A program made the translations under genes and the position numbers. Shown piece by piece: positions 6,616 to 28,336 of a stretch of DNA of 64,000 nucleotides (its first letter is position 1; each line of letters opens with the position of its first letter). The notes beneath the pieces were generated by a model. That model was not told the origin of the DNA and ran no database searches. It worked only from the letters and a program-made list of their open reading frames with translations. The stretch is from assembly GCA_913020445.1 (NCBI GenBank), contig CAJWAR010000009.1:23605-87604 (forward strand), written 5' to 3'. Origin of the DNA: an uncultured Rhodospirillaceae bacterium (GTDB lineage Bacteria > Pseudomonadota > Alphaproteobacteria > Rhodospirillales > UBA2165).

Positions 6616-7842
6616 CTACGATGTTTTTGGCGGAAAGTTATGGGCCACATAATCATCAATGATTTGTTTGAACTCGGCGGCAATATTTTCACCCCGCAGC
6701 GTCATTTTCTTTTCGCCATCGATGAAGACAGGGGCTGCCGGTTGTTCGCCAGTGCCCGGCAGGCTGATGCCGATATTGGCATGTTTACTCTCGCCGGGAC
6801 CATTGACGATGCAGCCCATCACGGCAACCTGCATATCTTCAACACCGCTATATTGCCTGCCCCATTCCGGCATTTTGTCGCGCACATAGCCTTGAATATC
6901 ATCAGCGAGTTCCTGGAATACTGTACTGGTCGTCCGGCCGCAGCCGGGACAGGCCGCAATTTGCGGCGTGAATGAGCGAATACCCAGTGACTGGAGAATT
7001 TCCTGGGCGACAATGACCTCGCGCGTCCGGTCGCCGCCCGGCTCCGGTGTCAGTGAAATACGAATGGTATCGCCAATCCCTTGTTGCAGCAGGACCGCGA
7101 GCGCGGCCGTTGAGGCAACAATTCCTTTTGATCCCATGCCGGCTTCGGTGAGCCCCAAATGGAGCGCATAATCACATTTGTCCGCCATCATTTGATAGAC
7201 CGCGATTAAATCCTGCACTGCACTTACTTTGCACGACAATATAATGTGGTCACGCGCCAAGCCGATCTCCTCGGCAAGGGCGGCACTTTCCAAGGCCGAC
7301 GCTACCAATGCATCATGCATGACCAGTTGAACATCTTTGGGATCGTCGAGCTTGGCATTATCGTCCATAAAGCGGGCCAGCAAATCCTGATCCAGGCTGC
7401 CCCAATTGACGCCGATGCGCACCGGTTTACCATGTTTGATCGCCTGCTCGATCATCACCGTGAACTGCTGATCTTTTTTGTCCTTGAAGCCGACATTGCC
7501 GGGATTGATGCGGTATTTGGCGAGAGCTTGGGCGCAATCTGGATAGTCGGTCAGCAACGTATGGCCATTGTAGTGAAAGTCACCGACCAGTGGCACATGG
7601 CAGCCCATATCATCCAATTGGGCGCGGATGTTCGCGACTTGCGCGGCCGCCTCTTCGGTATTGACGGTTATGCGGACAAGTTCAGAACCCGCCTCAGCAA
7701 GTGCGGCCACTTGGCCCACCGTGGCTGAGGCATCCGCCGTATCGGTGTTGGTCATGGATTGCACGACGATGGGCGCACCGCCGCCAACAACAATATCGCC
7801 GATTTTTACCGCCACACTTTTATGCCGCTCAATTTGAACCAT
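6616..7842 (-). CDS. ispG: HMBPP synthase (MEP pathway)
   Basis: [48 protein letters not shown]. Confidence 0.96.
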
Positions 7843-7905
7843 AAGAGACTGTTTATCTTAGCTGGATTGGACTTGCCAGCTTTCTTCTGCGATCATCCCG
7901 CCATT

Positions 7906-8760
7906 ATGATGGATGCAACCAACCCATCTGAGGAAATAAGTTCCGGCAAAGACATCGCTTACGAGAATTTTCCCGTCGGCTCTTGGCTGCTGCCGGCGCA
8001 TCTGCGTCCCCATATTGCGACGTTTTATCACTTTGCCCGTGCCGCCGATGATATTGCCGATTCTGCTGATTTGAGCGCCGAAGACAAGATCACCCGCCTC
8101 GATCAATATCAAAGAGCAATTAACAATGAGCTGACCGGCAACACGGCGCCGGAAAAAGCGGCCCGCATGGCAGATAGTTTAACTGAGACAAAGACAACGC
8201 CCCAGTATTGTGTCGATTTGCTGGCGGCGTTTAAGCAGGATGCGACTAAACACCGCTATCAAAATTGGCCGGAATTGATCAACTATTGCGAATTATCCGC
8301 CGCACCCGTTGGGCGTTATTTACTCGATTTGCACGGGGGATCAAAAGACGGATATGGTCCGTCCGATGCGTTGTGTGTAGCGCTCCAAATCCTCAATCAT
8401 CTGCAGGACTGCCAAGATGACTATCAGACTCTTGACCGAGTATATTTGCCGCTCGAAATATTGGTAAAGCATGGCACCGGGGTTGACGAATTAACCGCAT
8501 CAGCAGCAACAGCATCTTTGCGCCACGTATTCGATGACATCCTGGATCGCGTTGATGAATTGATGCGCGAAGCAGCGCGGCTGCCGGCCGGACTCAATAA
8601 TCGTCGATTGGCGATGGAATCTCAAATCATCATCAACGTAGCCAATCGCCTGAGTCAAAAATTGCGCCACAATGACCCACTTAAAAACCGTGTGGAACTT
8701 TCTAAGCCACAGTATTTATTGTGTTTTGTTTCAGGAGCACTCCAGGCACTGTTCCGATGA
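7906..8760 (+). CDS. hpnC: Hydroxysqualene synthase HpnC
   Basis: YENFPVGSWLLP, FARAADDIAD, YCELSAAPVGR, ALQILNHLQD; start placed at ATG 7906/7909. Confidence 0.92.
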   Translation: MMDATNPSEEISSGKDIAYENFPVGSWLLPAHLRPHIATFYHFARAADDIADSADLSAEDKITRLDQYQRAINNELTGNTAPEKAARMADSLTETKTTPQYCVDLLAAFKQDATKHRYQNWPELINYCELSAAPVGRYLLDLHGGSKDGYGPSDALCVALQILNHLQDCQDDYQTLDRVYLPLEILVKHGTGVDELTASAATASLRHVFDDILDRVDELMREAARLPAGLNNRRLAMESQIIINVANRLSQKLRHNDPLKNRVELSKPQYLLCFVSGALQALFR

Positions 8761-9905
8761 TACTTTTAGCATGTGCCGGGAGTTCACTTTTCATGTGGAT
8801 TGTTCTGGTGTTTTTTCGCGGTGGTTTTTGGCGCGCTGATCAGTGTCTCGCAGCGGTTCTGACACCACTTACCAATCCACCCAATGTCGTCGTCATCATT
8901 CCAGCGCGCAATGAAGAAATGACCATCGGGCGCACCATAAATTCTCTATTAGAGCAAGATTACGCCGGCAATTTTTCAATTATCGTCATTAATGACAATA
9001 GTGAAGACGACACCGTCAATGCAGCCAAAGTCGCCGCTCAAGGGACAGACAATCTCACAATCGTTGACGGAGCAGAATTACCGGTAGGCTGGACCGGCAA
9101 GATGTGGGCTGTCGCCCAAGGCGTAGAAACCGCTAACAATGATTTACCGGAAACCGACTATTATCTTTTGACCGATGCCGACATCTCTCATCATCCTGAG
9201 AACCTCGCTGAACTTATGACCAAAGCAATAGATGAAAAACTGGCGCTGATATCTCTGATGGTTCGATTACGCTCGGAGACTTGGTGGGAACATCTGTTAA
9301 TGCCCGCTTTTGTATTCTTTTTCCAAAAACTGTATCCGTTTCCGTGGGTGAACAACCCGAAGAAAAAAACAGCTGGTGGAGCCGGTGGCTGCATGCTGGT
9401 CAAACGATCAGCCCTCGAAAATGCTGGCGGCATTGAAGCGATCAAAGGCGAGATTATTGACGATTGCGCCTTGGCCGAGCTGCTGAAAAAGTCCGATCCT
9501 ATTTGGCTCGGCCTTACCCGCTCAACGACCAGTCTTCGCGGCTATGAGAAACTGTCAGATATTTGGCCGATGGTCTGCCGGACGGCTTTCGTTCAACTGA
9601 ACCATTCAAGCCTTAAACTGGTCGGCACGGTAATTGGCATGGCGCTTATTTATATCATGCCAATTATTGCGATTTTTATCGGAATTATAAGTCAAGAGAT
9701 TGAACTGCTTGCTCTAGGCTTAGTGGCTTGGGCGCTCATGGCTGTCGCCTATACGCCTACTCTCAGACTATATACGCGCCCAGCCTGGGAAGCCGGTTTA
9801 CTTCCGCTCGCCGCATTGCTTTATACTGCCATGACGCTAGACTCAGCCAGACAGTACTGGACCAATAAGGCGCCAGTTTGGAAAGGGCGCCGGAACGTAA
9901 AATAG
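8757..9905 (+). CDS. hpnB: Hopene-associated GT2 glycosyltransferase HpnB
   Basis: IIPARNEE, GWTGKMWA, LTDADI, FFFQKLYPF, IIDDCALA, WKGR; ATGA overlap with the hpnC stop. Confidence 0.88.
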   Translation: MILLACAGSSLFMWIVLVFFRGGFWRADQCLAAVLTPLTNPPNVVVIIPARNEEMTIGRTINSLLEQDYAGNFSIIVINDNSEDDTVNAAKVAAQGTDNLTIVDGAELPVGWTGKMWAVAQGVETANNDLPETDYYLLTDADISHHPENLAELMTKAIDEKLALISLMVRLRSETWWEHLLMPAFVFFFQKLYPFPWVNNPKKKTAGGAGGCMLVKRSALENAGGIEAIKGEIIDDCALAELLKKSDPIWLGLTRSTTSLRGYEKLSDIWPMVCRTAFVQLNHSSLKLVGTVIGMALIYIMPIIAIFIGIISQEIELLALGLVAWALMAVAYTPTLRLYTRPAWEAGLLPLAALLYTAMTLDSARQYWTNKAPVWKGRRNVK

Positions 9906-9908
9906 ACA

Positions 9909-10769
9909 ATGTCCCCAAAAGAAACACAACTCGGAGAATTCCCGGATATTATCTCGATTGTGCGAAAATCGGGATCGTCGTTCTATTGGGCGATGCGCCT
10001 GCTGCCGCACCAGAAGCGCGACGCCATGTTTGCGATTTACGCGTTTTGCCGGAACGTCGATGACATTGCCGATGGAGAAGATGACCCGGCCAGCAAGCAC
10101 GCGAAACTTCAGCAATGGCGCGACGAGATCGATCATCTCTATGACGGCAACCCCAACAATCTCATTACCAACGCTTTGGCTGGGCCGGTAGAAACCTATG
10201 GGCTGGCCAAGGCGGACTTCGCAGCCGTAATTGATGGCATGGAGATGGATGCAGTCGACGCCTTACGCCTTCAGGATATGGCTGAGCTGGTCCTATATTG
10301 TGACCGTGTCGCCTGTGCCGTTGGCCGGCTTTCTAATGCTGTCTTTGGCCTCAGCGGAGTTCAAAGCAACGATCTGGCCAAATCGCTTGGCGAAGCGCTT
10401 CAACTGACGAATATTCTGCGCGACATTTATGAAGATGCTGAACGGGATCACATATATTTACCGGCCGACCTCCTCGCCCGTCACGGCATTGTTGGCGCAT
10501 CCGTCAATGATATAATTGAACATCCAGGGATTGTCGAAGTCTGCATCGAACTGGATAGACGGGCAGAAGATAACTATCGAAAAGCTTCTTCGATAATTGA
10601 GCAATGTGATAAAAATCTTATTCGTCCTGCCATCATCATGATGAAAAGTTATCATCAGCTTTTGCACTTGTTAGAATGTCGTGGCTGGGAACGCCTTGAT
10701 GTTCCCGTAAAAGTATCAAAAATATGGAAATTGTTGTTGACTGCGCGTATTCTAATTTTCGGTAACTGA
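9909..10769 (+). CDS. hpnD: Presqualene diphosphate synthase HpnD
   Basis: SGSSFYWAMRLLP, YAFCRNVDDIAD, YCDRVA, ALQLTNILRD. Confidence 0.92.
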   Translation: MSPKETQLGEFPDIISIVRKSGSSFYWAMRLLPHQKRDAMFAIYAFCRNVDDIADGEDDPASKHAKLQQWRDEIDHLYDGNPNNLITNALAGPVETYGLAKADFAAVIDGMEMDAVDALRLQDMAELVLYCDRVACAVGRLSNAVFGLSGVQSNDLAKSLGEALQLTNILRDIYEDAERDHIYLPADLLARHGIVGASVNDIIEHPGIVEVCIELDRRAEDNYRKASSIIEQCDKNLIRPAIIMMKSYHQLLHLLECRGWERLDVPVKVSKIWKLLLTARILIFGN

Positions 10770-10771
10770 AA

Positions 10772-12742
10772 ATGCAGAAGCGCACCGAAAATTTAAGAGC
10801 CGGAGAAATTGCAGGCCAAAAGATATCTTTGGATGAGGTGGTCCAAAGAGCGCAATCCCGTCTGCTCAGCAGTCAGGCAGAAGACGGCCATTGGGCCTTT
10901 CCCTTGGAAGCTGACGTCACCATTACCGCAGAATACATTTTGCTCAATCATTACCTTGGTGAGATCAATGATGAAGTGGAAGCCAAACTCGCCAATTACA
11001 TTCGCCGCATTCAAGGCGAACATGGCGGCTGGCCGCTTTATCATGGCGGTGATCTAAATGTCAGCGCTTCAGTAAAAGCCTATTTCGCCTTAAAACTTTC
11101 CGGCGATGATCCGGAAGCGCCGCATATGATTAAGGCCAGGGATGCGATTTTAGCCCATGGCGGCGCCAAAGAAACAAATGTGTTCACACGAATTACCTTG
11201 GCGTTATTTGGCCTGGTTCCCTGGCGAGCAACGCCGGTTACGCGCATTGAGGTCTTATATGCGCCAAAGTGGTTTCCGCTCCATATCAATAAAGTTTCCT
11301 ATTGGACACGTACCGTTACGGTTCCGCTGTTGATATTAACGGCGCTGCGCCCCAAAGCCAAAAACCCGCGCAATATTATGATTGATGAGCTTTTTACTAA
11401 ATCGCGCTTCGAAGAAGATTATCGGATCAAGAATCCCACCGGGCATTGGCTCGGCAAATTGATGATCGTCCTTGATCTATTAGCGCGGCCATTTGAAAGT
11501 TTGATTCCAAGTTATATTGTCAATCGTAGCATCGACAAAGCAATGAATTTCATCACCGAACGATTAAACGGAGATGACGGGCTCGGCGGTATTTTTCCGG
11601 CCATGGCCAATGCTCTAATAGCCTTTGATGCCTTGGGCATTCCTAAAGATAATCCCCGCGTGGTAACCGCCCGCCGAGCCATTGAGAAATTACTGATATT
11701 TCAGGATGACGAAGCCTATTGCCAACCCTGCCTTTCACCAGTTTGGGACACCGGCCTCGCCGCCCATGCGATGCTGGAAGCAAGTCGGGCTGCGGGCCCG
11801 CACGCCATCGAAGATGATACCATCGCCAAATCCTGCAATTGGCTCGAAGCGCTTCAAATTAAGGATTGTATTGGTGACTGGGCGATGTGGCGGCCGGATG
11901 TCCGGCCCGGTGGTTGGGCCTTTCAATACCGCAACGACTATTACCCTGACGTTGATGATACGGCGGTTGTCGCCATGGCGCTGCACCGAACCGGTAATAA
12001 GAACTATGAACCCGCCATTCAACGCGCCGCCGAATGGGTTGTCGGTATGCAATCGAAAAGTGGCGGCTGGGCGGCTTTTGATGTGGATAATGAATATTAC
12101 CTGCTGGAAAATATGCCCTTTGCTGACCATGGTGCATTGCTCGACCCACCGAGCGCCGATGTTTCAGCCCGCTGCATTAGTTTTTTAGCGCAAATTGGCT
12201 ATGACAGCGCACACCCGGCGATACAGCGCGGGTTAACCTATCTAAAGCAAGAGCAGGAAGATGATGGATCGTGGTTTGGCCGTTGGGGCACCAACTACAT
12301 TTATGGTACCTGGTCGGTATTGTCGGCGCTGAATGCAGCCGGTGAAGATTTAGATGCCGATTATATCAGGCAGGCCGTTGACTGGCTTGTATCATTCCAA
12401 CACCAAGATGGTGGCTGGGGTGAAGATTGCGCCAGCTATTGGCCAGATCGCAATCAACATGATTTTCAATTTTCTCTACCTTCGCAAACAGCTTGGGCGG
12501 TTCTAGGACTCATGGCGGCGGGTGAAGGCAAAAGTGAGGCGGTAAAAAGAGGCATCCAATTTCTCCTTGAGACTTGCCAAGTCGATGGCGATTGGCAAGA
12601 AGAGCATTTCAATGCTGTTGGTTTTCCGCGGGTGTTTTTTTTGCGCTACCATGGCTACCGCCATTATTTTCCACTCCTCGCCTTAGCGCGTTACCGCAAT
12701 CTGGAAAGCACCCACACCGATCACCCGGTTTATGGCCTTTGA
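10772..12742 (+). CDS. shc: Squalene-hopene cyclase
   Basis: YPDVDDTA catalytic motif, QW repeats (QAEDGHW, QEDDGSW, QHQDGGW), SPVWDT, GRWGTNYIYGT. Confidence 0.98.
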   Translation: MQKRTENLRAGEIAGQKISLDEVVQRAQSRLLSSQAEDGHWAFPLEADVTITAEYILLNHYLGEINDEVEAKLANYIRRIQGEHGGWPLYHGGDLNVSASVKAYFALKLSGDDPEAPHMIKARDAILAHGGAKETNVFTRITLALFGLVPWRATPVTRIEVLYAPKWFPLHINKVSYWTRTVTVPLLILTALRPKAKNPRNIMIDELFTKSRFEEDYRIKNPTGHWLGKLMIVLDLLARPFESLIPSYIVNRSIDKAMNFITERLNGDDGLGGIFPAMANALIAFDALGIPKDNPRVVTARRAIEKLLIFQDDEAYCQPCLSPVWDTGLAAHAMLEASRAAGPHAIEDDTIAKSCNWLEALQIKDCIGDWAMWRPDVRPGGWAFQYRNDYYPDVDDTAVVAMALHRTGNKNYEPAIQRAAEWVVGMQSKSGGWAAFDVDNEYYLLENMPFADHGALLDPPSADVSARCISFLAQIGYDSAHPAIQRGLTYLKQEQEDDGSWFGRWGTNYIYGTWSVLSALNAAGEDLDADYIRQAVDWLVSFQHQDGGWGEDCASYWPDRNQHDFQFSLPSQTAWAVLGLMAAGEGKSEAVKRGIQFLLETCQVDGDWQEEHFNAVGFPRVFFLRYHGYRHYFPLLALARYRNLESTHTDHPVYGL

Positions 12743-13422
12743 GTGATACTGAAGCCGTGAAACGTATCGGATTTATTACCGGCATTCAGAAGGAAGCGGC
12801 GATCCTCCGAAAAAATTCTGGAATTCAAAAATCTGATGTTAAATGTGCTGGCGCGAATTCCGACCGCGCAAATGAATTGGCGAGTGATTTGGCCCAAGAC
12901 GGTTGTGATGCCTTGATCAGTTTTGGCGTAGCCGGCGCGCTTGATCCCACTCTACGTCCAGGAGACCTGATTATCCCCGATCAAGTAATCAGCACCAACG
13001 GCGACTCTTTTGAAACTTCAAAAGATCAACTGATTTCTCATCTCGGCAGTCGCTTCATATTTAAGCGCGGCTCGCTATTGGGCTCTGATAATTTGATCGC
13101 CAGCGTGACCGAAAAACAGGCGTTGCATAAATCAACGGGCTCGATCGCCGTCGACATGGAATCCATAGGCGTCGCCCAAGCAGCACGTGGTCACGGACTT
13201 CCCTTTCTTGTCATCCGCGCTATTTCTGACGCAGCCGATCAGGACTTACCTGCTGCCTCATACCAGGCAGTTGACGATCAAGGAAATATACGGATTGGTT
13301 CGATATTGTTGGAGCTGGTTAAAAACCCTAGCGGACTACCAGACCTTATAAAAATGTCGGGTGACAGCGGTAAAGCCTTCGATACCTTACGCCGCGTCGC
13401 TGCGCTCGTTATTGACTACTAA
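12739..13422 (+). CDS. hpnG: Hopanoid-associated nucleosidase/phosphorylase HpnG
   Basis: ISFGVAGALDP, AVDMES, VIRAISD (PNP_UDP family); TTG start overlaps the shc stop. Confidence 0.85.
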   Translation: MSDTEAVKRIGFITGIQKEAAILRKNSGIQKSDVKCAGANSDRANELASDLAQDGCDALISFGVAGALDPTLRPGDLIIPDQVISTNGDSFETSKDQLISHLGSRFIFKRGSLLGSDNLIASVTEKQALHKSTGSIAVDMESIGVAQAARGHGLPFLVIRAISDAADQDLPAASYQAVDDQGNIRIGSILLELVKNPSGLPDLIKMSGDSGKAFDTLRRVAALVIDY

Positions 13423-14466
13423 ACGCGGGCCAATATCCGGTACCATTGCGCTATCTGTATTCACGCCATTCAGCGCCACTTTCAGAGCTTTCAGCGGATG
13501 TGCAACGGTATCCAGCACAGCTGTCGGTTCATACCCGCAATGGACCATGCAATCAGCACATTTTTCATAATTACCCGTGCCGTAATTTGCCCATTCGGTT
13601 TCTTCCATCAATTCTGTAAATGTATTGGCATAACCTTCACTCAACAGATAGCACGGCCGCTGCCAGCCAAAAATATTGCGGGTGGGATTTCCCCAAGGCG
13701 TACACTGGTACGTTTGATTACCAGCCAGAAAATCCAAAAAAAGCGAAGATTGACTGAATTGCCAATTGCGCCCCTTGCCTTTCTTAAACACGTCACGAAA
13801 CAACTGCTTGGTTTTTCCCCGGTTGAGAAAGTGCTCTTGATCAGGTGCGCGCTCATAGGCATAGCCAGGGGAGATAGTGATCCCTTCAACGCCTAAATCA
13901 AGACAGGCGAAGTCAAAGAAGGCGGCAATCTCGTCAGCGTTCATTTGATCAAATAAAGTGCAATTGATATTGATGCGAAAGCCCTTTGATTTGGCCTTAC
14001 GGATTGCCGAGACAGCACGTTCAAACACACCTTCTTGATCAACGGCATGGTCATGATGGGTCTCCAATCCATCCAAATGCACAGAAAGTGTCAAATAGGG
14101 CGTTGGCTGATATTGATCTAATTTTTTCTCCAACAACAACGCATTGGTACAGAGATAGACAAATTTTTTGCGCTCGATTAGGGCCGCAACAATTTCCGGC
14201 ATATCATGGTGAAGTAGAGGCTCACCGCCCGGAATGGACACAATCGGCGCACCGCATTCCTCGGCAGCTGCAATACATTCCTCAACGCTCAAGCGCCGAT
14301 CTAGAACATCGTCTTCATAGTCAATTTTACCACAGCCCGGACAGGCCAGATTACATCGAAATAGAGGCTCCAGCATCAAAACCAACGGATAACGCTGGAT
14401 TCCTTTCAAACGATGTTTGAAAATATACCCACCAACACGCAATTGCTGAATAAGTGGAACCGCCAT
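13387..14466 (-). CDS. hpnH: Radical SAM adenosylhopane synthase HpnH
   Basis: LEPLFRCNLACPGCGKI, GGEPLLH, CTPWGNPT, CADCMVHCGYE. Confidence 0.95.
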   Translation of the reverse strand: MAVPLIQQLRVGGYIFKHRLKGIQRYPLVLMLEPLFRCNLACPGCGKIDYEDDVLDRRLSVEECIAAAEECGAPIVSIPGGEPLLHHDMPEIVAALIERKKFVYLCTNALLLEKKLDQYQPTPYLTLSVHLDGLETHHDHAVDQEGVFERAVSAIRKAKSKGFRININCTLFDQMNADEIAAFFDFACLDLGVEGITISPGYAYERAPDQEHFLNRGKTKQLFRDVFKKGKGRNWQFSQSSLFLDFLAGNQTYQCTPWGNPTRNIFGWQRPCYLLSEGYANTFTELMEETEWANYGTGNYEKCADCMVHCGYEPTAVLDTVAHPLKALKVALNGVNTDSAMVPDIGPRLVVNNERSDAA

Positions 14467-14469
14467 TGG

Positions 14470-19833: not shown

Positions 19834-19840
19834 GCCTAAT

Positions 19841-20980
19841 ATGATATCCGCCGACGACTTCATTATCCCGGCCCATGAACGTGGTTATGATTTTTACACC
19901 GGTGTGCCGTGTTCGTTTTTAACGCCGTTTATCAATCGGGCAATTTTATCGGATAAAACAGATTATGTTGGTGCTGCCAGCGAAGGTGAGGCGGTCGCAA
20001 TCGCCGCCGGGGCTTGGCTGGCCGGACGCAAAACTATCGTCATGTGTCAAAATTCAGGGCTTGGCAATTGCGTTAATCCTATCACCTCGCTTAATTTTCC
20101 GTTTCGCATCCCAACCTTACTTATCACCACCTGGCGTGGTCAGCCGGGACTGAAAGATGAGCCGCAGCACGAACTAATGGGCCCGATCACCCAGTCTTTG
20201 ATGGAGCTCATGCGGGTTCAATGTAAGACTTTTCCAAGCGAGAAGGCGCAAATATCCGGTACTTTGGATGCGGCGGAGAAAGTGATAGCGGAATCCAATT
20301 TGCCATTTGGTTTTATCATGGAAAAAGGCGCTGTCGGACCGGAAGAACTGGATCAAGCGCCGACAGAACCAAAGCCGCCGGGTTCTAACCAAGATTTACG
20401 TTCCGGCACGATTGACGCCAACCGCTATCAAACTTTGGAGAAAACACTTGAGATTGTCTCCGATGAAACGGCTCTGATTGCTACCACCGGAAAATGCGGG
20501 CGGGAATTGTTCACCATAGCCGACCGGCCCCAGCATTTCTATCAAGTGGGCTCGATGGGTGGTGCGTCCGGCATGGGCCTCGGCGTCGCGCTCAACACGG
20601 ACAAACCGGTGGTCGTCTTGGATGGTGATGGGGCGGCGCTGATGAAAATGGGCAGTCTCGCCACCATCGGCGCTTACGCACCTGATAACCTTACCCACGT
20701 GGTGCTCGATAACGGTGTCCACGATTCAACCGGCGGTCAGGCCACCGTCAGCCCGCATGTTGATTTTGCTCAAGTGGCTTTGGCTTGCGGCTTCCGCCAT
20801 GCCGCAACGACTGATAATTTGTCGGGTTTTGGCGAAGCGCTTTCTATGGCAAGCGAAAATGACGGCCCATCGCTCATTCATGCCAAGATCACGACGGGCT
20901 CGATTGACAATTTAGGCCGGCCTACAGTCAAACCGCAAGACGTCGCCCACCGCTTTCGGAAGTTCATAACCGGCACTTAG
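19841..20980 (+). CDS. ppd: Phosphonopyruvate decarboxylase
   Basis: GVPCS, EGEAVA, QNSGLGN, DEPQH, VGSMG, TPP motif DGDGAALM..NGVHDSTGGQ; 7 bp after pepM. Confidence 0.95.
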   Translation: MISADDFIIPAHERGYDFYTGVPCSFLTPFINRAILSDKTDYVGAASEGEAVAIAAGAWLAGRKTIVMCQNSGLGNCVNPITSLNFPFRIPTLLITTWRGQPGLKDEPQHELMGPITQSLMELMRVQCKTFPSEKAQISGTLDAAEKVIAESNLPFGFIMEKGAVGPEELDQAPTEPKPPGSNQDLRSGTIDANRYQTLEKTLEIVSDETALIATTGKCGRELFTIADRPQHFYQVGSMGGASGMGLGVALNTDKPVVVLDGDGAALMKMGSLATIGAYAPDNLTHVVLDNGVHDSTGGQATVSPHVDFAQVALACGFRHAATTDNLSGFGEALSMASENDGPSLIHAKITTGSIDNLGRPTVKPQDVAHRFRKFITGT

Positions 20981-20981: not shown

Positions 20982-22091
20982 TTAATTAACGCCCATTTCT
21001 TCGATAACCTCGCCAACAGCCTTAACCGCGTTTTCGATATCTGATTTGGTTATATGGCCGATGCAGCCGACGCGGAAACTATCAACTTTGGTCAGTTTGC
21101 CCGGATATATGGCGAAGCCACGTCCCTGCAGCCTGGTATAAAACTCATCAAAGTCAAAGTTTTCATCACTCGGCATATGAAAGGTTACAATAATTGGTGC
21201 CTGCAGATTATCAGATAGATAGGTTTTAAACCCAAGGGCCCGCATGCCACTCACCAGCGCCTGGCAGTTTTCCTGATAGCGCCGTCCCCGACCTTCAACG
21301 CCTCCCTCCTGCTCATGTTCGGCCAACGCCTGATCAAGGGCGGCAAGTACATGGGTCGGCGGGGTAAAGCGCCATTGGCCGGTCTTTACCAAATTTTGCC
21401 ATTGGTCATAGAGATCAAGACTCAACGATGTCGCATTTCCCTCTGATGCCGCCAGCTCGCTTTGCTTGATGATTGCAAAACCGGCACCAGGCACGCCCTC
21501 CAGACATTTATTAGCGGATGCCACAACAGCAGCGCATTCGATGTCACCAACGTTCAACGGCAGCGCGCCAAACGTGCTCATGGCATCTATAATGAGCTGC
21601 CGATTTTCGCGGGCAACCACCGCAGCTATTTCTTCAATCGGATTTAGTATCCCCGACGTTGTTTCACAGTGAACGGCGGCGACATGGGTGATAGCCGGAT
21701 CATCTTTCAAACATGCGCCTATCTGATCCGCTTGCGGCGGTGTGTCTTCAGCGGTTTCAAGCGTCACAAAGCTGCGGCCATTAACCTCACAGATTTTTGC
21801 CATACGTTGGCCATAAGCGCCGTTGATGAGTACCAGGACCTTGCCGTCTCGCGGCACCAGGGTATCAATCGTGGCTTCGACGGCGAAGGTGCCGCTGCCT
21901 TGGACCGGCACGCAAACATGTGAAGGAGAAACTGGATTAACTCCGGCAATCGCCGCCAGCTTTTGACATACCCGCGCAGTCAGCTCAATGAATTGAGCAT
22001 CCCGAGACCCCCAGTCACGGAGCATGGCCTCTTTGGTTTTTTTCGACGTCGTCAAAGGCCCCGGGGTCAAAAGCAGCGGTTCATCCGACAT
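20982..22091 (-). CDS. phnW: 2-aminoethylphosphonate:pyruvate transaminase (AepZ/PhnW family)
   Basis: LLTPGPLTTS, DWGSRD, GSGTFAVE, HCETTSG, DAMS, SANKCLEGVPG, QWRFTPP, IYPGKL. Confidence 0.93.
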   Translation of the reverse strand: MSDEPLLLTPGPLTTSKKTKEAMLRDWGSRDAQFIELTARVCQKLAAIAGVNPVSPSHVCVPVQGSGTFAVEATIDTLVPRDGKVLVLINGAYGQRMAKICEVNGRSFVTLETAEDTPPQADQIGACLKDDPAITHVAAVHCETTSGILNPIEEIAAVVARENRQLIIDAMSTFGALPLNVGDIECAAVVASANKCLEGVPGAGFAIIKQSELAASEGNATSLSLDLYDQWQNLVKTGQWRFTPPTHVLAALDQALAEHEQEGGVEGRGRRYQENCQALVSGMRALGFKTYLSDNLQAPIIVTFHMPSDENFDFDEFYTRLQGRGFAIYPGKLTKVDSFRVGCIGHITKSDIENAVKAVGEVIEEMGVN

Positions 22092-22147: not shown

Positions 22148-22744
22148 ATTAGCCACAATACTTGGATACATCGATTTGTCACCATTGGCGTTCGGCCATT
22201 CGTCAATACCGCCATAACGCCCAATCAGATTACGACAGTTCGGCTCGCCACCGGTATCGGTGCTGCGGCGTGTTTCGCCGTGGGCGAGGAAATGTGGTCG
22301 ATGATCGGCAGTGGTGTATTTGTTGTGTCTATGCTGCTTGATCGAGCCGATGGTATTTTGGCGCGGCTTTCGGGCAAAACCTCACCCGGCGGCCATAAAT
22401 TCGATCTGGTAGCGGATTCGTTTTCCAACTCGCTGGCATTTGTCGGCATTGGTATTGGCCTACGCAGCAGCCCTCTTGGCGAATTGGCAATTCCACTTGG
22501 CATCCTCGCCGGCCTCGCCATTACGGCTGTCCTGTGGTTGGTCATGCGCGCCGAAGAACAGGAAGGCAGCCGGGCTGCCGAGCTGGGGGGCACCGCAGGC
22601 TTTGATCCTGATGACGCGATGCTCGCCGTTCCGGTCGCCGTGTTGCTTGGTTGGGGCACGGAGCTGATTGTCGCGGCGGCTTTCGGCGCGTCACTTTTCG
22701 CTGTCTTTTTCTATTTTAAGTTCCGCCGATTTTTAGGGCGCTAA
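22148..22744 (+). CDS. CDP-alcohol phosphotransferase 1
   Basis: DRADGILAR..G..FDLVAD full motif; the frame extends upstream of the track's GTG to ATT 22148 (SHNTWIHR..TPNQIT), preceded by GGGGAG. Confidence 0.85.
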   Translation: MSHNTWIHRFVTIGVRPFVNTAITPNQITTVRLATGIGAAACFAVGEEMWSMIGSGVFVVSMLLDRADGILARLSGKTSPGGHKFDLVADSFSNSLAFVGIGIGLRSSPLGELAIPLGILAGLAITAVLWLVMRAEEQEGSRAAELGGTAGFDPDDAMLAVPVAVLLGWGTELIVAAAFGASLFAVFFYFKFRRFLGR

Positions 22745-23353
22745 TCGAAAATAGGTCCAAATTGTCCATAGACAATAAATTGTTGCGCCAATACCGGCAG
22801 CGACAAAAAAAGGTGTTAGAAATCCGAACCACGTCACCGGTGCAAGCAAATAGATACCATCCTCAAGCTCAAACCCCGCGAAACCGGGATAGCCGACCGC
22901 TTCACCATCGCCCAATTCTTCTGAGCGTTGATCGATACCAAGATTTGAGAAAAGCGAAACTAACGCCGATGCCGCCCCGGCAGCTCCCAGCACTAAGGCC
23001 CAAATTCCAAGCTCCCCTTGCCAATGACCAATCCCGAGCCCGATAAAAAGCGCGGCATAGCCAATACCACCAGCAGCATAATCGAAGTAGTAGCCAAAGC
23101 TTGAAGTGGACCCCTGAAGGCGCGCCAGTTCACCATCAAAATGATCGAAGAATCGCGCCAGCACAAAAAGACCCGCCGCCCAATTGACGTTGATCTCGCC
23201 ACCAATCGCAAATAGCACGCCCGCCCCAAGGGTCATTATAAGTGTAAGTCCGGTAATGTGATTGGGGCGAATAGGTGACGGGCCAAGCAGTCGCACCATA
23301 ATTCGAGCAAGACGCTGATCGTAGGGGATTTTGGTCTTTTGATCTTGTGCCAT
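22733..23353 (-). CDS. CDP-alcohol phosphotransferase 2 (last motif Asp replaced by Gly)
   Basis: RPNHIT, DHFDGELAR..GYYFDYAAG. Confidence 0.85.
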   Translation of the reverse strand: MAQDQKTKIPYDQRLARIMVRLLGPSPIRPNHITGLTLIMTLGAGVLFAIGGEINVNWAAGLFVLARFFDHFDGELARLQGSTSSFGYYFDYAAGGIGYAALFIGLGIGHWQGELGIWALVLGAAGAASALVSLFSNLGIDQRSEELGDGEAVGYPGFAGFELEDGIYLLAPVTWFGFLTPFFVAAGIGATIYCLWTIWTYFRLAP

Positions 23354-23430: not shown

Positions 23431-26049
23431 TTGAGTACAAATGCCACATCCCAGTTTGCGAACGCCATTGGCCGAAGGATTGGCCTATGGGTTGGACTGG
23501 TGTGTCGTAACGCATTCTGGGCGATCTTGCTTTCGTTTATTGCGACAATCGCACTTTTTTATGTCTCAGTTACTGAGATCGATATTAGTACCGACACCTC
23601 CGATATGTTATCGCCTGATTTGCCTTTTCGGCAAAACTCAATCGCTCTTAGCGAGGCTTTCCCCCAATTCTCAGACAATATAGTTGTGGTGATCGATGGC
23701 GGGAACGCAGATTTGGTAAACGAAGCCGCCGATCAAGTTACCGCTCAGCTGCGCCTTGAACCCAATTTATTCGGTGGGGTGTTTGATCCAGCTGACCTGA
23801 CTTATTTTCAACGCAACGGCTTGCTCTATCTTGAAATGGATGAATTGGAAGAGCTGTCCGACCGCCTCATCACAGCGCAGCCCTTTATAGGTACTCTTTG
23901 GAAAAACCCGACCCTTCTCGGTTTGTTCGATTTGTTGAGCTTGTTTTTAAAAGAAGGAAATAATAATTCCGAACTCCTCGGTGAGGCGCGACCGATGATC
24001 AGCAGCATCACCGATATTGTATTGGCGCAAGTTGCTGGAAAATCGGATCGGCTATCCTGGCGCAGCATTATCTCAGGCAGTAATTCTGAGCACCCAACAC
24101 GGGTGATTGTCGTGCAACCAAAAACGGATTTTGGTTCCTTACAGCCGGGTGCTGAGGCGATAAAGCGCCTGCGCGAAATTAGCTTGGAATTAAAATTGAA
24201 ACAAAGATTCGATGCGCGGCTGCGCCTCACGGGCTCGGTTCCGTTGGCTGAAGAAGAGTTGGAAAGTGTCGTGGATGGTTTAGGGTTGGCGGGTATTCTA
24301 TCTCTGACACTTGTCCTTATCTTACTTTTCTGGGGACTGAAGTCTGTGCGCCTGGTCTTAGCGACGCTGATCACTTTGATTTTCGGTCTGGTGTGGACGG
24401 CGGGTTTCGCCGCGCTGGCCGTTGGTACGCTCAACCTAATATCGGTGGCCTTTGCTGTTTTATTTATCGGGCTGAGCGTCGATTTCGGTATTCACTTTGC
24501 GTTACGCTACCGCGAGATATCAAGTAGCCCTGCGGACGCTCTTGCCAGCGCCGCCCAGCGAGTTGGTGGTGCTTTAAGCCTATCAGCAGTGGCCGCGGCA
24601 ATAGGTTTTTTCTCGTTTCTGCCAACCGATTATATTGGCCTCGCAGAATTGGGCCTGATAGCCGGTGGTGGTATGTTCATAGCCCTTTTTGCCAATCTCA
24701 CGCTTCTACCCGCATTAATATATTTAATGCCGCCCAAGCAGCTCGAAACGGTGTCACCGGCTACCAAATTATTTCACACCAAAACTCATCGGCCTATCAT
24801 CGGCGCGGCTATCCTCCTCGCCATTCTATCTTTGTTTATCGCCCCCAAAGTTCTCTTCGATTTTGATCCGCTGAATTTAAAGGATACCCGCACGGAATCC
24901 GTTTCGACATTCTTTGATCTTATGAGAGAAGGAAATGGCAGTCCTTACGGTATTACGATCCTCGCCAAAGACTTAAAAACCGCTGATCAGTTGACCATAC
25001 GGGCAAAAAAGCTAGCAGAAGTGGACAGTGTCGTAACGCTATCCAGCTTGATACCAAAAGAGCAAGATGACAAGCTCACCATAATTGATAATCTCGCACT
25101 TATTCTGGGGCCCGCCCTAACGGGTTCGCCCAATTCGACCTCATCAACGGAATCCGAACGATTGAAGGTAACTGTAAACCTGCAAAATGAAATTCGAGCT
25201 TTTGGACAGACAGCGGTCAAATCCGAATTGTCCATTGCGGTGACCAGCTTTGGTACGGCTCTCGACAGACTTTTAACATCGACAAACCCTGACCACGCCT
25301 TGGTAGAATTGGAGCAACGTCTGCTGGCCAGCCTGCCCGGTCAGTTGTCGCGTCTAAAAGCATCCCTCAATGCAGAGCCAGTTACCTTGAAGGACCTTCC
25401 GAAAGTCCTGCGCTCCCGCCAAATGTCAGCCGATGGCAGCGTCAAAGTCGAGATTAACCCGAAAGGCAATATGCGCGACCGTCAGGAATTGGCAACTTTT
25501 GTTGCGGCAGTTCGTAAAATTGCCCCGGCGGCAACAGGAACGCCTGTTGTCATATTGGATGCCGGCAATACAGTCATCCAGGCATTTGTCGAAGCGGCGG
25601 CCATTACCTTCGTCCTGATAGTTATTATGGTCATTGCCCTAACACGCAGCATCCGAGAAATTGTACTTATTATCGCGCCCCTCCTTTTGGCGGCCATTTT
25701 CACATTGGCAGCTTCTGTAGTGCTAAATCTGCCGTTCAATTTTGCCAATGTCATCGTGTTACCGCTGTTGTTTGGGCTCGGAATTGCCGGTTCAATCCAT
25801 CTTGTCCTTAGAGATCGGGATCAGAGCGACAGTGACAATCAAAACGTCATGGCAACGTCCACGCCACGCGCCGTGGTCTTTAGTGCCTTAACCACCATCG
25901 GCTCTTTTGGCAGTATTGCGCTTTCCAGCCATCCCGGCACATCGAGCATGGGCGTACTGCTCACCATTGCCATTACGTTATCCCTGATCTGCACCTTGAT
26001 AGTTCTGCCGGCTCTGCTGACGGCTTGGCCGAAAGCAGGTGCCAAATGA
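23431..26049 (+). CDS. hpnN: Hopanoid RND/MMPL transporter HpnN
   Basis: DMLSPDLPFR, GLSVDFGIH, FNFANVIVLPLLFGLG, SSHPGTSSMG; two MMPL halves. Confidence 0.9.
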   Translation: MSTNATSQFANAIGRRIGLWVGLVCRNAFWAILLSFIATIALFYVSVTEIDISTDTSDMLSPDLPFRQNSIALSEAFPQFSDNIVVVIDGGNADLVNEAADQVTAQLRLEPNLFGGVFDPADLTYFQRNGLLYLEMDELEELSDRLITAQPFIGTLWKNPTLLGLFDLLSLFLKEGNNNSELLGEARPMISSITDIVLAQVAGKSDRLSWRSIISGSNSEHPTRVIVVQPKTDFGSLQPGAEAIKRLREISLELKLKQRFDARLRLTGSVPLAEEELESVVDGLGLAGILSLTLVLILLFWGLKSVRLVLATLITLIFGLVWTAGFAALAVGTLNLISVAFAVLFIGLSVDFGIHFALRYREISSSPADALASAAQRVGGALSLSAVAAAIGFFSFLPTDYIGLAELGLIAGGGMFIALFANLTLLPALIYLMPPKQLETVSPATKLFHTKTHRPIIGAAILLAILSLFIAPKVLFDFDPLNLKDTRTESVSTFFDLMREGNGSPYGITILAKDLKTADQLTIRAKKLAEVDSVVTLSSLIPKEQDDKLTIIDNLALILGPALTGSPNSTSSTESERLKVTVNLQNEIRAFGQTAVKSELSIAVTSFGTALDRLLTSTNPDHALVELEQRLLASLPGQLSRLKASLNAEPVTLKDLPKVLRSRQMSADGSVKVEINPKGNMRDRQELATFVAAVRKIAPAATGTPVVILDAGNTVIQAFVEAAAITFVLIVIMVIALTRSIREIVLIIAPLLLAAIFTLAASVVLNLPFNFANVIVLPLLFGLGIAGSIHLVLRDRDQSDSDNQNVMATSTPRAVVFSALTTIGSFGSIALSSHPGTSSMGVLLTIAITLSLICTLIVLPALLTAWPKAGAK

Positions 26050-26681
26050 ATCCCTTTTTTCCACTGATTAGGCGTTTCTCAAACCCGGTCAGCAGAGTGC
26101 TGATTAGGTTACCAATCACACCAAATCAAATATCCATCGCATCTTTAATTTTTGGCTTAGCCGGGTGTTTTTATATTAGTCGTAATAATTTTGATGACCA
26201 GCTCCTCGGTAGCTTTCTATTTATTGTTGGATATATATTCGACAACTGTGACGGGGAAGTTGCGCGGCATAAAAATCTGGCCACTGATTTGGGCAGAAAA
26301 TTGGATTCCTTTGTCGATTGGATAGTTCATGCTGTTTTTTTTATTGCTCTCGGCTATGGCATTGCCCGAGAAGCCCAGGATAATATTTGGCTCTGGCTTG
26401 GCCTCATGGGAGGTCTCGGCAGCACGATAAATTACAGTTTGGGTATTTTTCTGGACGACCCAAACGCCTCGCAGGATTTAGTGGCCGCCTCACAACCGGA
26501 AACGATAAAGGATTATATAATATTTGTTTTCCGCGAGCTATTCCGCGCGGATTTTTGCTTTATTGTCCTATTGCTAACTCTATTTGATAATTTGTGGGTA
26601 CTCTTGCCTGCCGCTGCCATTGGTGCACAGGTCTATTGGATTTTATATTTAACGTCCCGCGATAAAAACTATCATGTATAG
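26046..26681 (+). CDS. CDP-alcohol phosphotransferase 3
   Basis: TPNQIS, DNCDGEVAR..GRKLDSFVD full motif; ATGA overlap with the hpnN stop. Confidence 0.87.
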   Translation: MNPFFPLIRRFSNPVSRVLIRLPITPNQISIASLIFGLAGCFYISRNNFDDQLLGSFLFIVGYIFDNCDGEVARHKNLATDLGRKLDSFVDWIVHAVFFIALGYGIAREAQDNIWLWLGLMGGLGSTINYSLGIFLDDPNASQDLVAASQPETIKDYIIFVFRELFRADFCFIVLLLTLFDNLWVLLPAAAIGAQVYWILYLTSRDKNYHV

Positions 26682-26717
26682 AGCCGATTACAGATTGCGA
26701 AAAACTGGGCAAGCCAG

Positions 26718-27710
26718 ATGAAGATTTTTAAAATAATTTTTTTTGTTGTCGGCTTGGCGCTCTTGGGGTGGGTTATTCAGCAGACCGATATCGCCGAGAC
26801 ATTAGAACTCGTCAGCCAGATCGGTTTTGGCTTTCTGCTTGTGCTATTTTTTTATTTTCTGGCCTTCCTGTTTGATTCACTAACCTGGCAGATGACCGTT
26901 ATTTCAGCGCCGCTGACGCCTAAATGGCTCTATCGTTTTTTTCATATGCGGCTAGCTGGTGAAGCATTTAACAACACCTTGCCTGCCGCCAGCATGGGCG
27001 GTGAACCGGTAAAAGCCGTGCTGCTCAAAAACCACTATGGGTTCAATTATCGAGAAGGCGTGGCTTCGATTATTCTCGCTCGCACAATTAATTCCATTGC
27101 TCTCATTCTGTTCCTAGTTGCCGGTATATTCTTGATGCTTGATAGCGCGATACTTGATGAGAAATATATTTCGATCGCCGGCACCGGTTTGGTGGTGCTC
27201 ACCATACTTATATTTCTGTTTTTTGCCGTTCAGCGTTTCAAGCTCGCCAGCTTAACCAGCGCTGCCCTTAGCAAAAACACCTGGTTCCGGAGGCTAGATG
27301 GCGTCCTCCACCACATTCAAGATGTCGATGAAAAACTGGTCGAGTTTTATACCGCCCATCACGCACGCGCCGGCTTTGCATTTGTATTGGCTTTTATAAA
27401 TTGGGTGTTGGGGGTCGTGGAGATATACGTCACCATGTTTTTTCTCGGCCACCCGGTTTCAATGACCGAGGCTTGGATTATCGAGGCGGTTGCCCAATTG
27501 GTGCGCGCCGCGACATTTGTTATCCCGGCAAGCATCGGCGCTCAAGAAGGTGCTTTTATGATCATTGGCGCTGCGGTCACCGGTTCGCCGACAGTCGGTT
27601 TTGCAGTAGCACTTGTCAGACGCGCGCGCGAGATCATTTGGATTGGTTGGGGTATGGCGGCTTTCTACGTTGCCAAACCCGATATCACTCAAATTGAAAA
27701 AGAAACTTAA
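26718..27710 (+). CDS. Lysylphosphatidylglycerol-synthase-TM / HpnL-like flippase-type membrane protein
   Basis: AGEAFNNTLPAASMGGEPVK, FVIPASIGAQEG, LVRRAREI; multi-pass membrane protein. Confidence 0.8.
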   Translation: MKIFKIIFFVVGLALLGWVIQQTDIAETLELVSQIGFGFLLVLFFYFLAFLFDSLTWQMTVISAPLTPKWLYRFFHMRLAGEAFNNTLPAASMGGEPVKAVLLKNHYGFNYREGVASIILARTINSIALILFLVAGIFLMLDSAILDEKYISIAGTGLVVLTILIFLFFAVQRFKLASLTSAALSKNTWFRRLDGVLHHIQDVDEKLVEFYTAHHARAGFAFVLAFINWVLGVVEIYVTMFFLGHPVSMTEAWIIEAVAQLVRAATFVIPASIGAQEGAFMIIGAAVTGSPTVGFAVALVRRAREIIWIGWGMAAFYVAKPDITQIEKET

Positions 27711-27712
27711 AG

Positions 27713-28336
27713 TCAGTTGGCGATTAACTGATCGGCCTTTTTATTGAGGGCCGAGGCCAAAGCACCTGCCCCTTTGGTTTTTAAAGTTGAACGGTATTCG
27801 GAATGCTTTACCGCCAATTCGCTGATCCCACCATCCAGAAGGACATCAACAATCTTCCACATCCCCTTAATATTCTTAGTCACGTAAGTAAGTTTGACTA
27901 CCTTCTCCCGTTTCGCCTTTTTCTTCGGCGGACTGACGATCTGAGTGTGGACAAGTTTTGTCTGACGCGGCCCCTCTCTTGCCTTGAGCGTTTCAAAGCG
28001 TTGGCCGGAATAGTCGTTAAACCGAAAAGCGTAAGTAGCAATGCTTATGCGCCGAAAGGCTTTTAATAGCAGACTTTTATGCTCGACACTCGCTTTACGC
28101 CAAGCCGTACCGGAAGCTACCTTGATCATAAAACCAAGATCGAACGCCGTGATAATGGCCGGTTCAAGTTTAGCGTAGCGCTCTTTCGCAGTTAATTTTT
28201 CCGCTTCCTTCATCACCTCTAAAAGAACCGCATGAAAACTCTCAATAACTTTGGTTGGTGGAATATTCTCGGCAGCACTTGCGGTCGCATTTATGGCTAA
28301 AGCAAGGATCAAAATCAGCACCCTAGCTTGCTTCAT
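27713..28336 (-). CDS. hpnM: MlaC/Ttg2D-family periplasmic lipid carrier HpnM
   Basis: Signal peptide, FHAVLLEVMK, AFDL..M, WKIVDVLLDGGISELAVKHSEY. Confidence 0.8.
   Translation of the reverse strand: MKQARVLILILALAINATASAAENIPPTKVIESFHAVLLEVMKEAEKLTAKERYAKLEPAIITAFDLGFMIKVASGTAWRKASVEHKSLLLKAFRRISIATYAFRFNDYSGQRFETLKAREGPRQTKLVHTQIVSPPKKKAKREKVVKLTYVTKNIKGMWKIVDVLLDGGISELAVKHSEYRSTLKTKGAGALASALNKKADQLIAN

Follow-up and report, generated by a model that had tools for sequence, protein, structure and literature searches.

The window analysed here, a 64,000-nucleotide stretch of contig 9 of 117 in a 4.2-Mb marine alphaproteobacterial metagenome-assembled genome (MAG, ~95% complete), contains between positions 6616 and 28336 a hopanoid (hpn) gene cluster that encloses a cassette of genes predicted to make, activate and transfer 2-aminoethylphosphonate (AEP). 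At least half of the sampled words of the window are contained in seawater metagenome assemblies. Gene calls combine a list of open reading frames (ORFs) with Pfam and NCBIfam profile scans, the latter read against their curated cut-offs, and with these we recovered every gene that a previous interpretation of the bare DNA (the sequence-only reading) had named in this interval (Table 1). That interpretation suggested that the cluster may make a phosphonate-modified hopanoid. The comparative genomics described below favours a real functional link between the hopanoid and phosphonate gene sets, and centers on a core cytidine diphosphate (CDP)-alcohol phosphotransferase, CPTx, and a stand-alone cytidylyltransferase, NT2.

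On the hopanoid side, Shc, HpnH, HpnG, HpnC/D, HpnA, HpnB, HpnN and HpnM all score over their curated cut-offs. HpnE is encoded elsewhere in the genome (391 bits, cut-off 283), and the only hpnN and the only hpnL-like gene found in the genome both lie in this cluster. The true start of hpnG is probably further downstream than the listed ORF start, because the TIGR03468 alignment begins at residue 64. The label "hpnL-like" of the sequence-only reading was well chosen, as the protein reaches 182 bits against TIGR03476, just below the cut-off of 195.65, and so does not attain the threshold of the HpnL family. A distinct HpnL-like gene, 26-30% identical to that of the window, adjoins hpnA in three relatives (G026, G028 and G034; loci L135, L142 and L131; 26-28%) and is found also in G468-type loci. 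Two HpnL subtypes are thus discernible, of which the window holds only the cassette-type paralog.

On the phosphonate side, the fusion of phosphoenolpyruvate (PEP) mutase (PepM, also Ppm) with a PntC-type cytidylyltransferase (the nucleotidyltransferase, NTase, domain) exceeds the TIGR02320 cut-off and carries the Ppm-specific motif, described as EDKxxxxxNS (PMC6697681), whose residues E125, D126, K127, N133 and S134 are invariant in an alignment of eight sequences (A1). The phosphonopyruvate decarboxylase (Ppd) and the AEP transaminase likewise score over their cut-offs, and ppd probably begins close to the pepM stop, because its TIGR03297 alignment starts at residue 47. PF12804 is matched both in the PepM fusion and in NT2, a domain match from which PntC-type specificity is predicted; PntC chemistry itself has been shown for relatives (Rice et al. 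2019; PMC6697681). The two NTases align from end to end at 23% identity, and the best solved relative of NT2 is the AEP-specific NTase/class V aminotransferase 6pd1 (E=5e-6, full length, residues 2-244). For the PhyH-family oxygenase, the best NCBIfam match is NF052437, a PhnY-type methylphosphonate hydroxylase, at 160 bits and under the cut-off of 500.

CDP-alcohol phosphotransferases share the motif D1xxD2GxxAR...GxxxD3xxxD4, of which the fourth Asp is held to be catalytic. The sequence-only reading had counted three such enzymes; all three match PF01066, but the 154-aa ORF at 22280-22744 is too short, the full gene encoding 198 aa (CPTx), and the gene at 22733-23353 (CPT1) lacks the fourth Asp. 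We place CPTx at 22148-22744 because its frame extends without a stop past the listed GTG start in the upstream direction, with no ATG, GTG or TTG between 21992 and 22280, the 44 codons upstream of that start are conserved in relatives, the ortholog residue at the new start position is Ile in six, Met (ATG) in two and Val (GTG) in one, the ATT codon at 22148 is preceded by GGGGAG, and the PF01066 match runs from profile position 2. CPTx thus probably starts at this ATT codon. Gene callers evidently truncate it, since in two public fusion proteins described below, P0002 and P0003, the start likewise falls after the conserved N-terminus. Its motif is complete (DRADGILAR...GHKFDLVAD), and both CPTx and CPT2, the phosphotransferase next to hpnN, are over the PF01066 cut-off with all four Asp residues. 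CPT1, which overlaps CPTx convergently by 12 nt, reads DHFDGELAR...GYYFDYAAG in the window, with Gly at D4; the 15 other orthologs (at least 55% identity) all share this Gly, and the sister group of CPT1 (L037-L039, L043, L100) has Ala or Val at this position. CPT1 therefore resembles the family but should not be classed as an active member; it may be a non-catalytic partner of CPTx.

Table 1 Genes of the interleaved hopanoid and phosphonate cluster of the window, with the adjoining regulator gene
Feature	Coordinates	Strand	Basis
ispG (4-hydroxy-3-methylbut-2-enyl diphosphate (HMBPP) synthase)	6616..7842	-	NF001540 478 bits (cut-off 345); position kept in relatives
hpnC, hpnB, hpnD (squalene synthesis and hopene-associated GT2 glycosyltransferase)	7759..10769	+	Profile scores over cut-offs
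hpnC (ORF)	7759-8760	+	TIGR03464 276 bits (cut-off 250)
hpnB (ORF)	8721-9905	+	TIGR03469 514 bits (cut-off 379)
hpnD (ORF)	9909-10769	+	TIGR03465 336 bits (cut-off 279)
shc (squalene-hopene cyclase)	10772..12742	+	TIGR01507 782 bits (cut-off 431)
hpnG (hopanoid-associated phosphorylase/nucleosidase)	12574..13422	+	TIGR03468 198 bits (cut-off 187)
ispH-hpnH operon (HMBPP reductase; adenosylhopane synthase)	13387..15462	-	NF002188 482 bits (cut-off 420); TIGR03470 556 bits (cut-off 225)
hpnA (hopanoid-associated, short-chain dehydrogenase/reductase (SDR)/epimerase-like)	15563..16555	+	TIGR03466 497 bits (cut-off 368)
NT2 (stand-alone PntC-like cytidylyltransferase)	16568..17320	+	PF12804
PhyH-family Fe/2-oxoglutarate dioxygenase (PhnY*-like; candidate AEP 1-hydroxylase)	17308..18072	-	PF05721, positions 1-212 of 213
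PepM-NTase fusion (PEP mutase and PntC-type cytidylyltransferase)	18172..19833	+	TIGR02320 396.5 bits (cut-off 319.55); PF12804 at residues 311-426
ppd (phosphonopyruvate decarboxylase)	19745..20980	+	TIGR03297 420 bits (cut-off 312.5)
aepT (AEP transaminase, AepZ/PhnW type)	20982..22091	-	NF010006 552 bits (cut-off 296); TIGR03301 499 bits (cut-off 361)
CPTx (core CDP-alcohol phosphotransferase, 198 aa, probable ATT start)	22148..22744	+	PF01066 from profile position 2
CPT1 (divergent, CDP-alcohol phosphotransferase-like, without fourth Asp)	22733..23353	-	PF01066
hpnN (resistance-nodulation-division (RND) hopanoid transporter family)	23431..26049	+	TIGR03480 951 bits (cut-off 752)
CPT2 (CDP-alcohol phosphotransferase translationally coupled to hpnN)	26046..26681	+	Full four-Asp motif
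HpnL-like LPG_synthase_TM (flippase-like) membrane protein, cassette type	26718..27710	+	PF03706 113 bits
hpnM (MlaC-like periplasmic lipid carrier)	27713..28336	-	TIGR03481 185 bits (cut-off 160)
IclR-family regulator (upstream of hpnM, same strand)	28349..29155	-	TIGR02431 73 bits, below cut-off

By their coordinates, hpnA-NT2 and hpnN-CPT2-hpnL form putative operons that mix the two gene sets. Both junctions pointed out in the sequence-only reading can be read directly in the DNA: 12 nt separate the hpnA stop from the NT2 ATG, and the ATGA at 26046-26049 contains the hpnN stop together with the CPT2 ATG. The same adjacencies recur elsewhere. In a first set of loci (ten relatives fetched for gene-order comparison, 18 named loci and the window), NT2 follows hpnA in 12 of 16 loci with both genes and CPT2 follows hpnN in 8 of 8; the corresponding figures are 18/20 and 12/12 in a second set of metagenome loci, which is biased in that its query was a CPTx-HpnN fusion.

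This fusion came from a search for longer relatives of CPTx. In two proteins, P0002 (1057 aa; six members on five contigs) and P0003 (1071 aa), a CPTx ortholog (61-67% identical, full motif) forms the N-terminal part and HpnN (TIGR03480 960 and 992 bits; 50% identity to HpnN of the window) the remainder. On metagenome contig L177 the fusion is a single open frame (9074-12469) lying among ispH, hpnA, NT2, PhyH, pepM-ppd and aepT, and in G683 (C21 near 20536) the CPTx sequence, 69% identical, sits in a 1104-aa open frame. Of the fusions whose reading frames were checked, only the CPTx-HpnN fusion of P0002, P0003 and L177 was upheld; the apparent HpnN-CPT2 and HpnL-CPT fusions in L135, L063 and L038 proved to be either frames that overlap in GC-rich DNA or pairs of genes split by one stop. 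A further protein, P0004 (689 aa, on a single 6.3-kb contig), is a fusion of a class III aminotransferase with a CPTx-like domain (48% identical, full motif). The aminotransferase part shares only 32% identity with the AptA-like gene at 3331-4611 of the window, and we claim no link between the two.

The linkage of shc and pepM, whose absence from relatives the sequence-only reading had named as a result that would refute its idea, proved to be conserved. Most of the genomes compared are MAGs, and absence of a gene here means that it was not found with the given query. Among 41 relatives, the window's genome included, 29 encode a full-length PepM-NTase (at least 57% identity), 32 encode Shc and 28 encode both; pepM occurs without shc only in G005 (82% complete), shc without pepM in four (one of them with a 37% PepM-like gene), and neither gene is found in eight. 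Seventeen of the 28 have the two genes on one contig, at most ~9 kb apart; the other 11 have them on different contigs, with pepM at a contig end in three. The order ispG / hpnCBD-shc-hpnG / hpnH-ispH / hpnA-NT2 / PhyH / pepM-ppd / aepT / CPTx / CPT1 / hpnN-CPT2-hpnL / hpnM is kept in all ten fetched relatives, which cover three families from genus to order, at 41-87% protein identity and with single genes not detected in some. Judged by this conservation across relatives, the arrangement is far beyond chance. In G034, which has shc and no pepM, the cluster keeps hpnA...hpnN-hpnM, lacks NT2, PhyH, aepT and all three CPTs, and carries instead the different HpnL-like gene (27% identity). Because these genes are missing together with pepM, the cassette, as far as gene content tells, behaves as one module inside the hpn cluster.

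Where pepM has moved away, activation and transfer genes stay with hopanoid genes. In G031, NT2 remains with hpnA and shc, and pepM-ppd-CPTx-CPT1-hpnN-CPT2-hpnL-hpnM lies elsewhere; in G026 and G054, the hpn cluster has kept NT2, PhyH and the CPTs, with pepM-ppd on another contig, a pepM-less layout found also on seven metagenome contigs (L191, L194, L201, L213, L229, L242 and L243). All five genomes with a lone pepM-ppd have an NT2 / CPT-hpnA module with the four-Asp motif, in three of them beside shc or hpnC/D. L037-L039 carry hpnN-NT2-CPT-hpnA on one strand, the Burkholderiales-order genomes G224 and G355 have CPTx-PhyH-NT2-pepM-ppd-aepT-hpnL-hpnM-hpnN / hpnA-hpnG-shc, and the gammaproteobacterial loci L109 and L094 have hpnA-NT2-pepM-ppd-aepT-dxs-hpnH-hpnB-hpnM, so that at least five different interleaved architectures occur across alpha-, beta- and gammaproteobacteria. 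The gammaproteobacterial variant (L109 5011-19964; L094) also holds a polyprenyl synthase, hpnG and a MlaA lipoprotein, with dxs on the reverse strand. This dxs is a putative assignment, read by eye from a 651-aa gene in L109 and L094; two "unknown" L109 ORFs between aepT and hpnH, without Pfam match, are spurious and represent the reverse strand of this gene, which is conserved in L094.

The association with hopanoid synthesis extends beyond physical linkage. In an even draw of 301 genomes across many families of the window's class (the class sample), the fused PepM-NTase is found in 27 genomes from 19 families; all 27 encode Shc, one of them (G573) with a contig-truncated match of 404 bits, compared with 65 of the 274 others. 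Thirteen of the 27 have shc and pepM on one contig within 20 kb of each other, G436 and G468 have them 0.9-2 Mb apart, and the other 12 have them on different contigs. A CPTx-type gene (E <= 1e-20) is present in 32 of the 301, including 25 of the 27 with fused PepM, and Shc accompanies it in 32/32, against 60/269 of the remainder. A second sample comprised 301 genomes of the Burkholderiales order, to which a Cupriavidus locus (G116) belongs: PepM-NTase occurs in 12, with Shc in 11 of these and in 22 of the 289 others. The Fisher values for the two PepM comparisons (p = 6e-16 in the class sample, p = 6e-11 in the Burkholderiales-order sample) are inflated by kinship among the genomes and overstate the significance. 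Cassette genes surround pepM in 12/12 of these Burkholderiales-order genomes, the core CPT there being nearest to CPTx, and the 11 genomes with CPTx-type genes are all PepM-positive. A third sample, the 80 nearest PepM loci, has 53 in genomes with Shc over cut-off; loci with a CPTx-, CPT1- or CPT2-type ORF are Shc-positive in 16/16 cases, versus 37/64 for the others, in a tally that enters G117, which has HpnH, as below cut-off.

Seven of the 32 CPTx carriers of the class sample have no PEP mutase over cut-off (G596 comes closest, at 289 bits), and all seven have Shc. The association of the transfer module with hopanoid genes is thus closer than its association with phosphonate synthesis. One genome, G660, is counted among the 32, the seven and the 65 Shc-positive genomes without fused PepM-NTase; dropping it leaves CPTx with Shc in 31/31, six PepM-less carriers and Shc in 64/273 of the others. 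In G587 (98% complete, L262), hpnN-NT2-PhyH-hpnL / CPTx lies inside the hpn cluster, and in G448 (L267) hpnN-CPT-hpnA-hpnL-CPT-NT2-ispH-hpnH runs on one strand. In these two genomes, as in G563 (L268) and G712 (L263), NT2, PhyH and CPTx lie within or close to hpn clusters, and no PEP mutase over cut-off is found. The PepM-less carriers suggest salvage of external AEP or use of a different head group.

These results bear on the possibility that the two gene sets have no functional link, a mobile phosphonate module having been inserted by chance into an ancestral hpn cluster and passively inherited. Within family f1 both sets were gained and lost together, as physical linkage alone would give, and linkage is scattered on the PepM tree, both as this explanation would have it. 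However, it fits the results poorly on the whole, given at least five interleaved architectures across three proteobacterial classes, nestedness within Shc carriers across at least 19 families, coupled operons (hpnA-NT2, and hpnN-CPT2-hpnL with its ATGA at hpnN/CPT2) and a gene fusion, and we consider it very improbable.

The phosphonate cassette as such is of a described kind. The core of the "Burkholderiales_CDP-OH" or Group 1 clusters comprises a Ppm-PntC fusion, Ppd, an AEP transaminase, a 2-oxoglutarate oxygenase, a second PntC, a CDP-alcohol phosphotransferase and an LPG_synthase_TM protein (Li & Horsman 2022, PMC8942020), and positions 16568-27710 of the window hold all seven functions. 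The window departs from Group 1 in that hpn genes lie between parts of its cassette, cassette genes share putative operons with hpnA and hpnN, and there are two additional CPT paralogs, CPT2 and the D4-less CPT1. An ordinary glycero-phosphonolipid is what has been predicted for Group 1 (PMC8942020), and its counterpart here would arise by transfer of AEP from cytidine monophosphate (CMP)-AEP to diacylglycerol, the cassette being only co-regulated or co-exported with hopanoids as both remodel the same outer-membrane leaflet. The complete seven-gene core, including its two phospholipid genes, agrees with such a product, as do the classical role of CDP-alcohol phosphotransferases in glycerolipid synthesis and the cassettes free of hopanoid neighbours in Cupriavidus, Nostoc and Nitrococcus loci and in G436. 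A glycerolipid product does not, however, predict the strict dependence on shc (32/32 for CPTx and 27/27 for fused PepM in the class sample, 11/12 in the Burkholderiales-order sample), the CPTx-HpnN fusion, or the NT2 and CPT genes remaining with hpnA or hpnN when pepM moves away. The name "phosphonolipid" is itself a prediction for Group 1, whose product was never characterised, and according to PMC8942020 these clusters, although abundant and with ppm expression detected, have yielded no characterised phosphonolipid. We regard a glycero-phosphonolipid as possible but unlikely. A variant in which CDP-diacylglycerol reacts with 1-hydroxy-AEP as acceptor was rejected: the PhyH gene was not detected in G013, L037-L039, L083, L084, L106 and L109, which keep NT2 and, in most cases, a CPT.

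Hybrid clusters of this sort have been flagged in print, as a "possible phosphonoterpene" for Nitrosococcus GCF 731 (PMC8942020), as an antiSMASH-predicted "phosphonate-terpene" cluster in N. oceani (PMC7285500) and as an "undiscovered terpene-phosphonate" in Roseomonas (PMC8776678). By their descriptions, these resemble the window in that PEP mutase and AEP genes adjoin squalene synthase and cyclase genes; unlike the analysis given here, the passages available from these papers are one-sentence antiSMASH/BiG-SCAPE remarks without transferase, acceptor, survey or compound, and the window belongs to a different lineage. The sequence-only reading was made without knowledge of these remarks. Like it, we found no phosphonate hopanoid described; the window is a further case of an already flagged shc-pepM cluster type with an uncharacterised product. 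A shc-pepM hybrid is reportedly also mentioned in a paper on Pandoraea (PMC5987411).

Our proposal for the window is that the cluster encodes one lipid-tailoring pathway, which would attach AEP or 1-hydroxy-AEP to an extended hopanoid as its head group. The route to AEP through PepM, Ppd and a transaminase is established enzymology, and these three enzymes would supply AEP here. AEP would then be converted to CMP-AEP by the PepM-fused NTase and/or NT2, as expected from their family, with optional hydroxylation at C1 by the PhyH-type dioxygenase, whose gene is missing in some relatives. At the crux of the pathway, CPTx would move the aminoethylphosphonyl group from CMP-AEP to a bacteriohopanepolyol (BHP) hydroxyl, most likely the C-35 OH. 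The polyol acceptor would be made by Shc, HpnH and HpnG, possibly with HpnA as ribosylhopane reductase; we know of no enzyme for ribosylhopane reduction, and a reduction by HpnA that yields the terminal alcohol would fit the coupling of hpnA to both CPT and NT2. The HpnL-like protein would then flip the product, and HpnN and HpnM would carry it toward the outer membrane, as their families, the operon structure and the CPTx-HpnN fusion suggest. CPT2 and the Asp-less CPT1 appear to be lineage-specific additions, perhaps a second transfer step and a non-catalytic partner, respectively. We put at roughly 0.55 the probability that CMP-AEP is transferred onto a bacteriohopanepolyol hydroxyl, an acceptor we infer, and that the product is flipped and exported by the HpnL-like protein, HpnN and HpnM. 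A more specific form of this proposal, to which we give about even odds, is that CPTx and NT2 form a dedicated hopanoid head-group phosphotransferase system, that its product is bacteriohopanetetrol (BHT) or a relative bearing AEP or 1-hydroxy-AEP at the side-chain end, which would constitute a new lipid class and the first C-P triterpenoid, and that PepM-less carriers use salvaged AEP or a phosphoester instead. For BHT-AEP and BHT-hydroxy-AEP we calculate [M+H]+ values of 654.4857 and 670.4806, respectively.

Parts of this scheme have counterparts in known systems. HpnI, HpnK and HpnJ decorate bacteriohopanetetrol to give BHT glucosamine and BHT cyclitol ether. The pathway proposed for the window is similar in that enzymes of the hpn cluster would add an activated head group to the side-chain end and HpnN, for which a transport role is cited in PMC12583986, would export the product. 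The chemistry is predicted to differ: that route uses a nucleotide sugar and a glycosyltransferase, whereas the window would use a CMP-phosphonate and a CDP-alcohol phosphotransferase. Neither HpnI nor HpnJ, the known BHP head-group enzymes, was found over cut-off in the window's genome, and no rival pathway for BHP decoration was found there. Eukaryotes transfer AEP from CMP-AEP to diacylglycerol. Bacteriovorax stolpii has an AEP / 1-hydroxy-AEP sphingolipid, mentioned in PMC8942020. In these systems, as proposed for the window, AEP or 1-hydroxy-AEP is esterified to a lipid alcohol; unlike the window, their acceptors are ceramide or diacylglycerol, and their gene neighbourhoods differ (GCF 761) and contain no hopanoid genes.

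Several points weigh against transfer to a hopanoid. To our knowledge, there is no precedent for a triterpenoid acceptor among CDP-alcohol phosphotransferases, and those relatives of the CPTs whose structures are solved use CDP-inositol, CDP-diacylglycerol or CDP-archaeol together with small polar acceptors. Our literature search for hopanoids combined with phosphonate or phosphate returned no described compound of this kind, and the main text of a 2025 survey of 52 alphaproteobacterial strains and 63 BHP structures, as available, never uses "phosphon" (PMC12583986). The statistical association is weaker than its kinship-inflated Fisher values imply. One cassette carrier of the Burkholderiales-order sample, G270, has neither Shc nor HpnH, on a contig that ends at pepM and in a genome lacking a completeness figure. 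The PepM-less carriers of NT2 and CPTx indicate that the donor need not always be AEP made by the cell. The cassette also stands alone in several hopanoid producers: it is complete and ~2 Mb from the hpn cluster in G436, and no hopanoid gene is found within 10 kb of it in the Cupriavidus, Nostoc and Nitrococcus loci. Linkage needs 9 changes on the PepM tree, compared with a shuffle mean of 11.6, and 21-23 of 500 shuffles do as well; linked loci therefore do not form one clade, and linkage has repeatedly been gained or lost. The tree separates three groups: linkage to hopanoid genes is seen in 9 of 37 rows of an alphaproteobacterial clade and in 4 of 21 rows of a beta/gamma/Nostoc clade, and a 35-row clade from other phyla has neither linkage nor cassette.

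A further alternative is a different acceptor, one that only hopanoid producers possess or require. Candidates are an HpnB-made glycolipid, lipid A or hopanoid-lipid A conjugates and a periplasmic glycan; in part of the family, the donor could instead be a phosphoester such as CDP-ethanolamine or CDP-choline. The same cluster contains HpnB (GT2) and HpnA (a nucleotide-sugar-type SDR), for which, as for HpnL, the function is stated as unknown (PMC12583986; preprint 10.1101/2025.07.29.667474). L109 and L094 have NT2-pepM-ppd-aepT among hpn genes with no CDP-alcohol phosphotransferase within 10 kb, and the seven CPTx carriers without a PEP mutase over cut-off would suit another donor. Against this stand the CPTx-type gene in 25 of the 27 fused-PepM genomes of the class sample, the AEP-specific 6pd1 as best solved relative of NT2, and the CPTx-HpnN fusion, which points to a cargo of the hopanoid transporter family. 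We consider another acceptor or donor improbable. The interpretation offered by the sequence-only reading is thus supported in part: linkage is conserved, the cassette is nested within Shc carriers in two samples, CPTx is fused to HpnN, and NT2 and CPT stay with hpnA and hpnN, all of which weakens the glycerolipid alternative; transfer to the hopanoid itself remains at the strength given above.

At the borders of the cluster, the IclR-family protein adjoining hpnM may regulate the whole cluster. An IclR-family neighbour of hpnM recurs in G003, G013 and L224 at 70-82% identity. Upstream of ispG, positions 4654-6233 encode an arylsulfotransferase-like protein (PF14269/PF05935) and a DUF2938 membrane protein. 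Further along the window, the 2-kb bin 52001-54000 has an unusually strong AT skew of +0.21 and overlaps a 663-aa ORF on the reverse strand (52061-54052).

If the hopanoid pathway proposed here is correct, its lipid would be made by many marine Alphaproteobacteria, by members of the Burkholderiales order and by other cassette-bearing hopanoid producers. Such a lipid would have been missed because the side chain is derivatised or cleaved in standard hopanoid work-ups. The pathway would answer what the most abundant predicted "phosphonolipid" clusters make, which are described as uncharacterised (PMC8942020), and would give a purpose for hpnL and perhaps for hpnA. It would also explain the source of part of the unassigned composite hopanoid pool. 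A marine phosphonate-bearing hopanoid would be a new biomarker and would link membrane triterpenoids to the marine phosphonate cycle.

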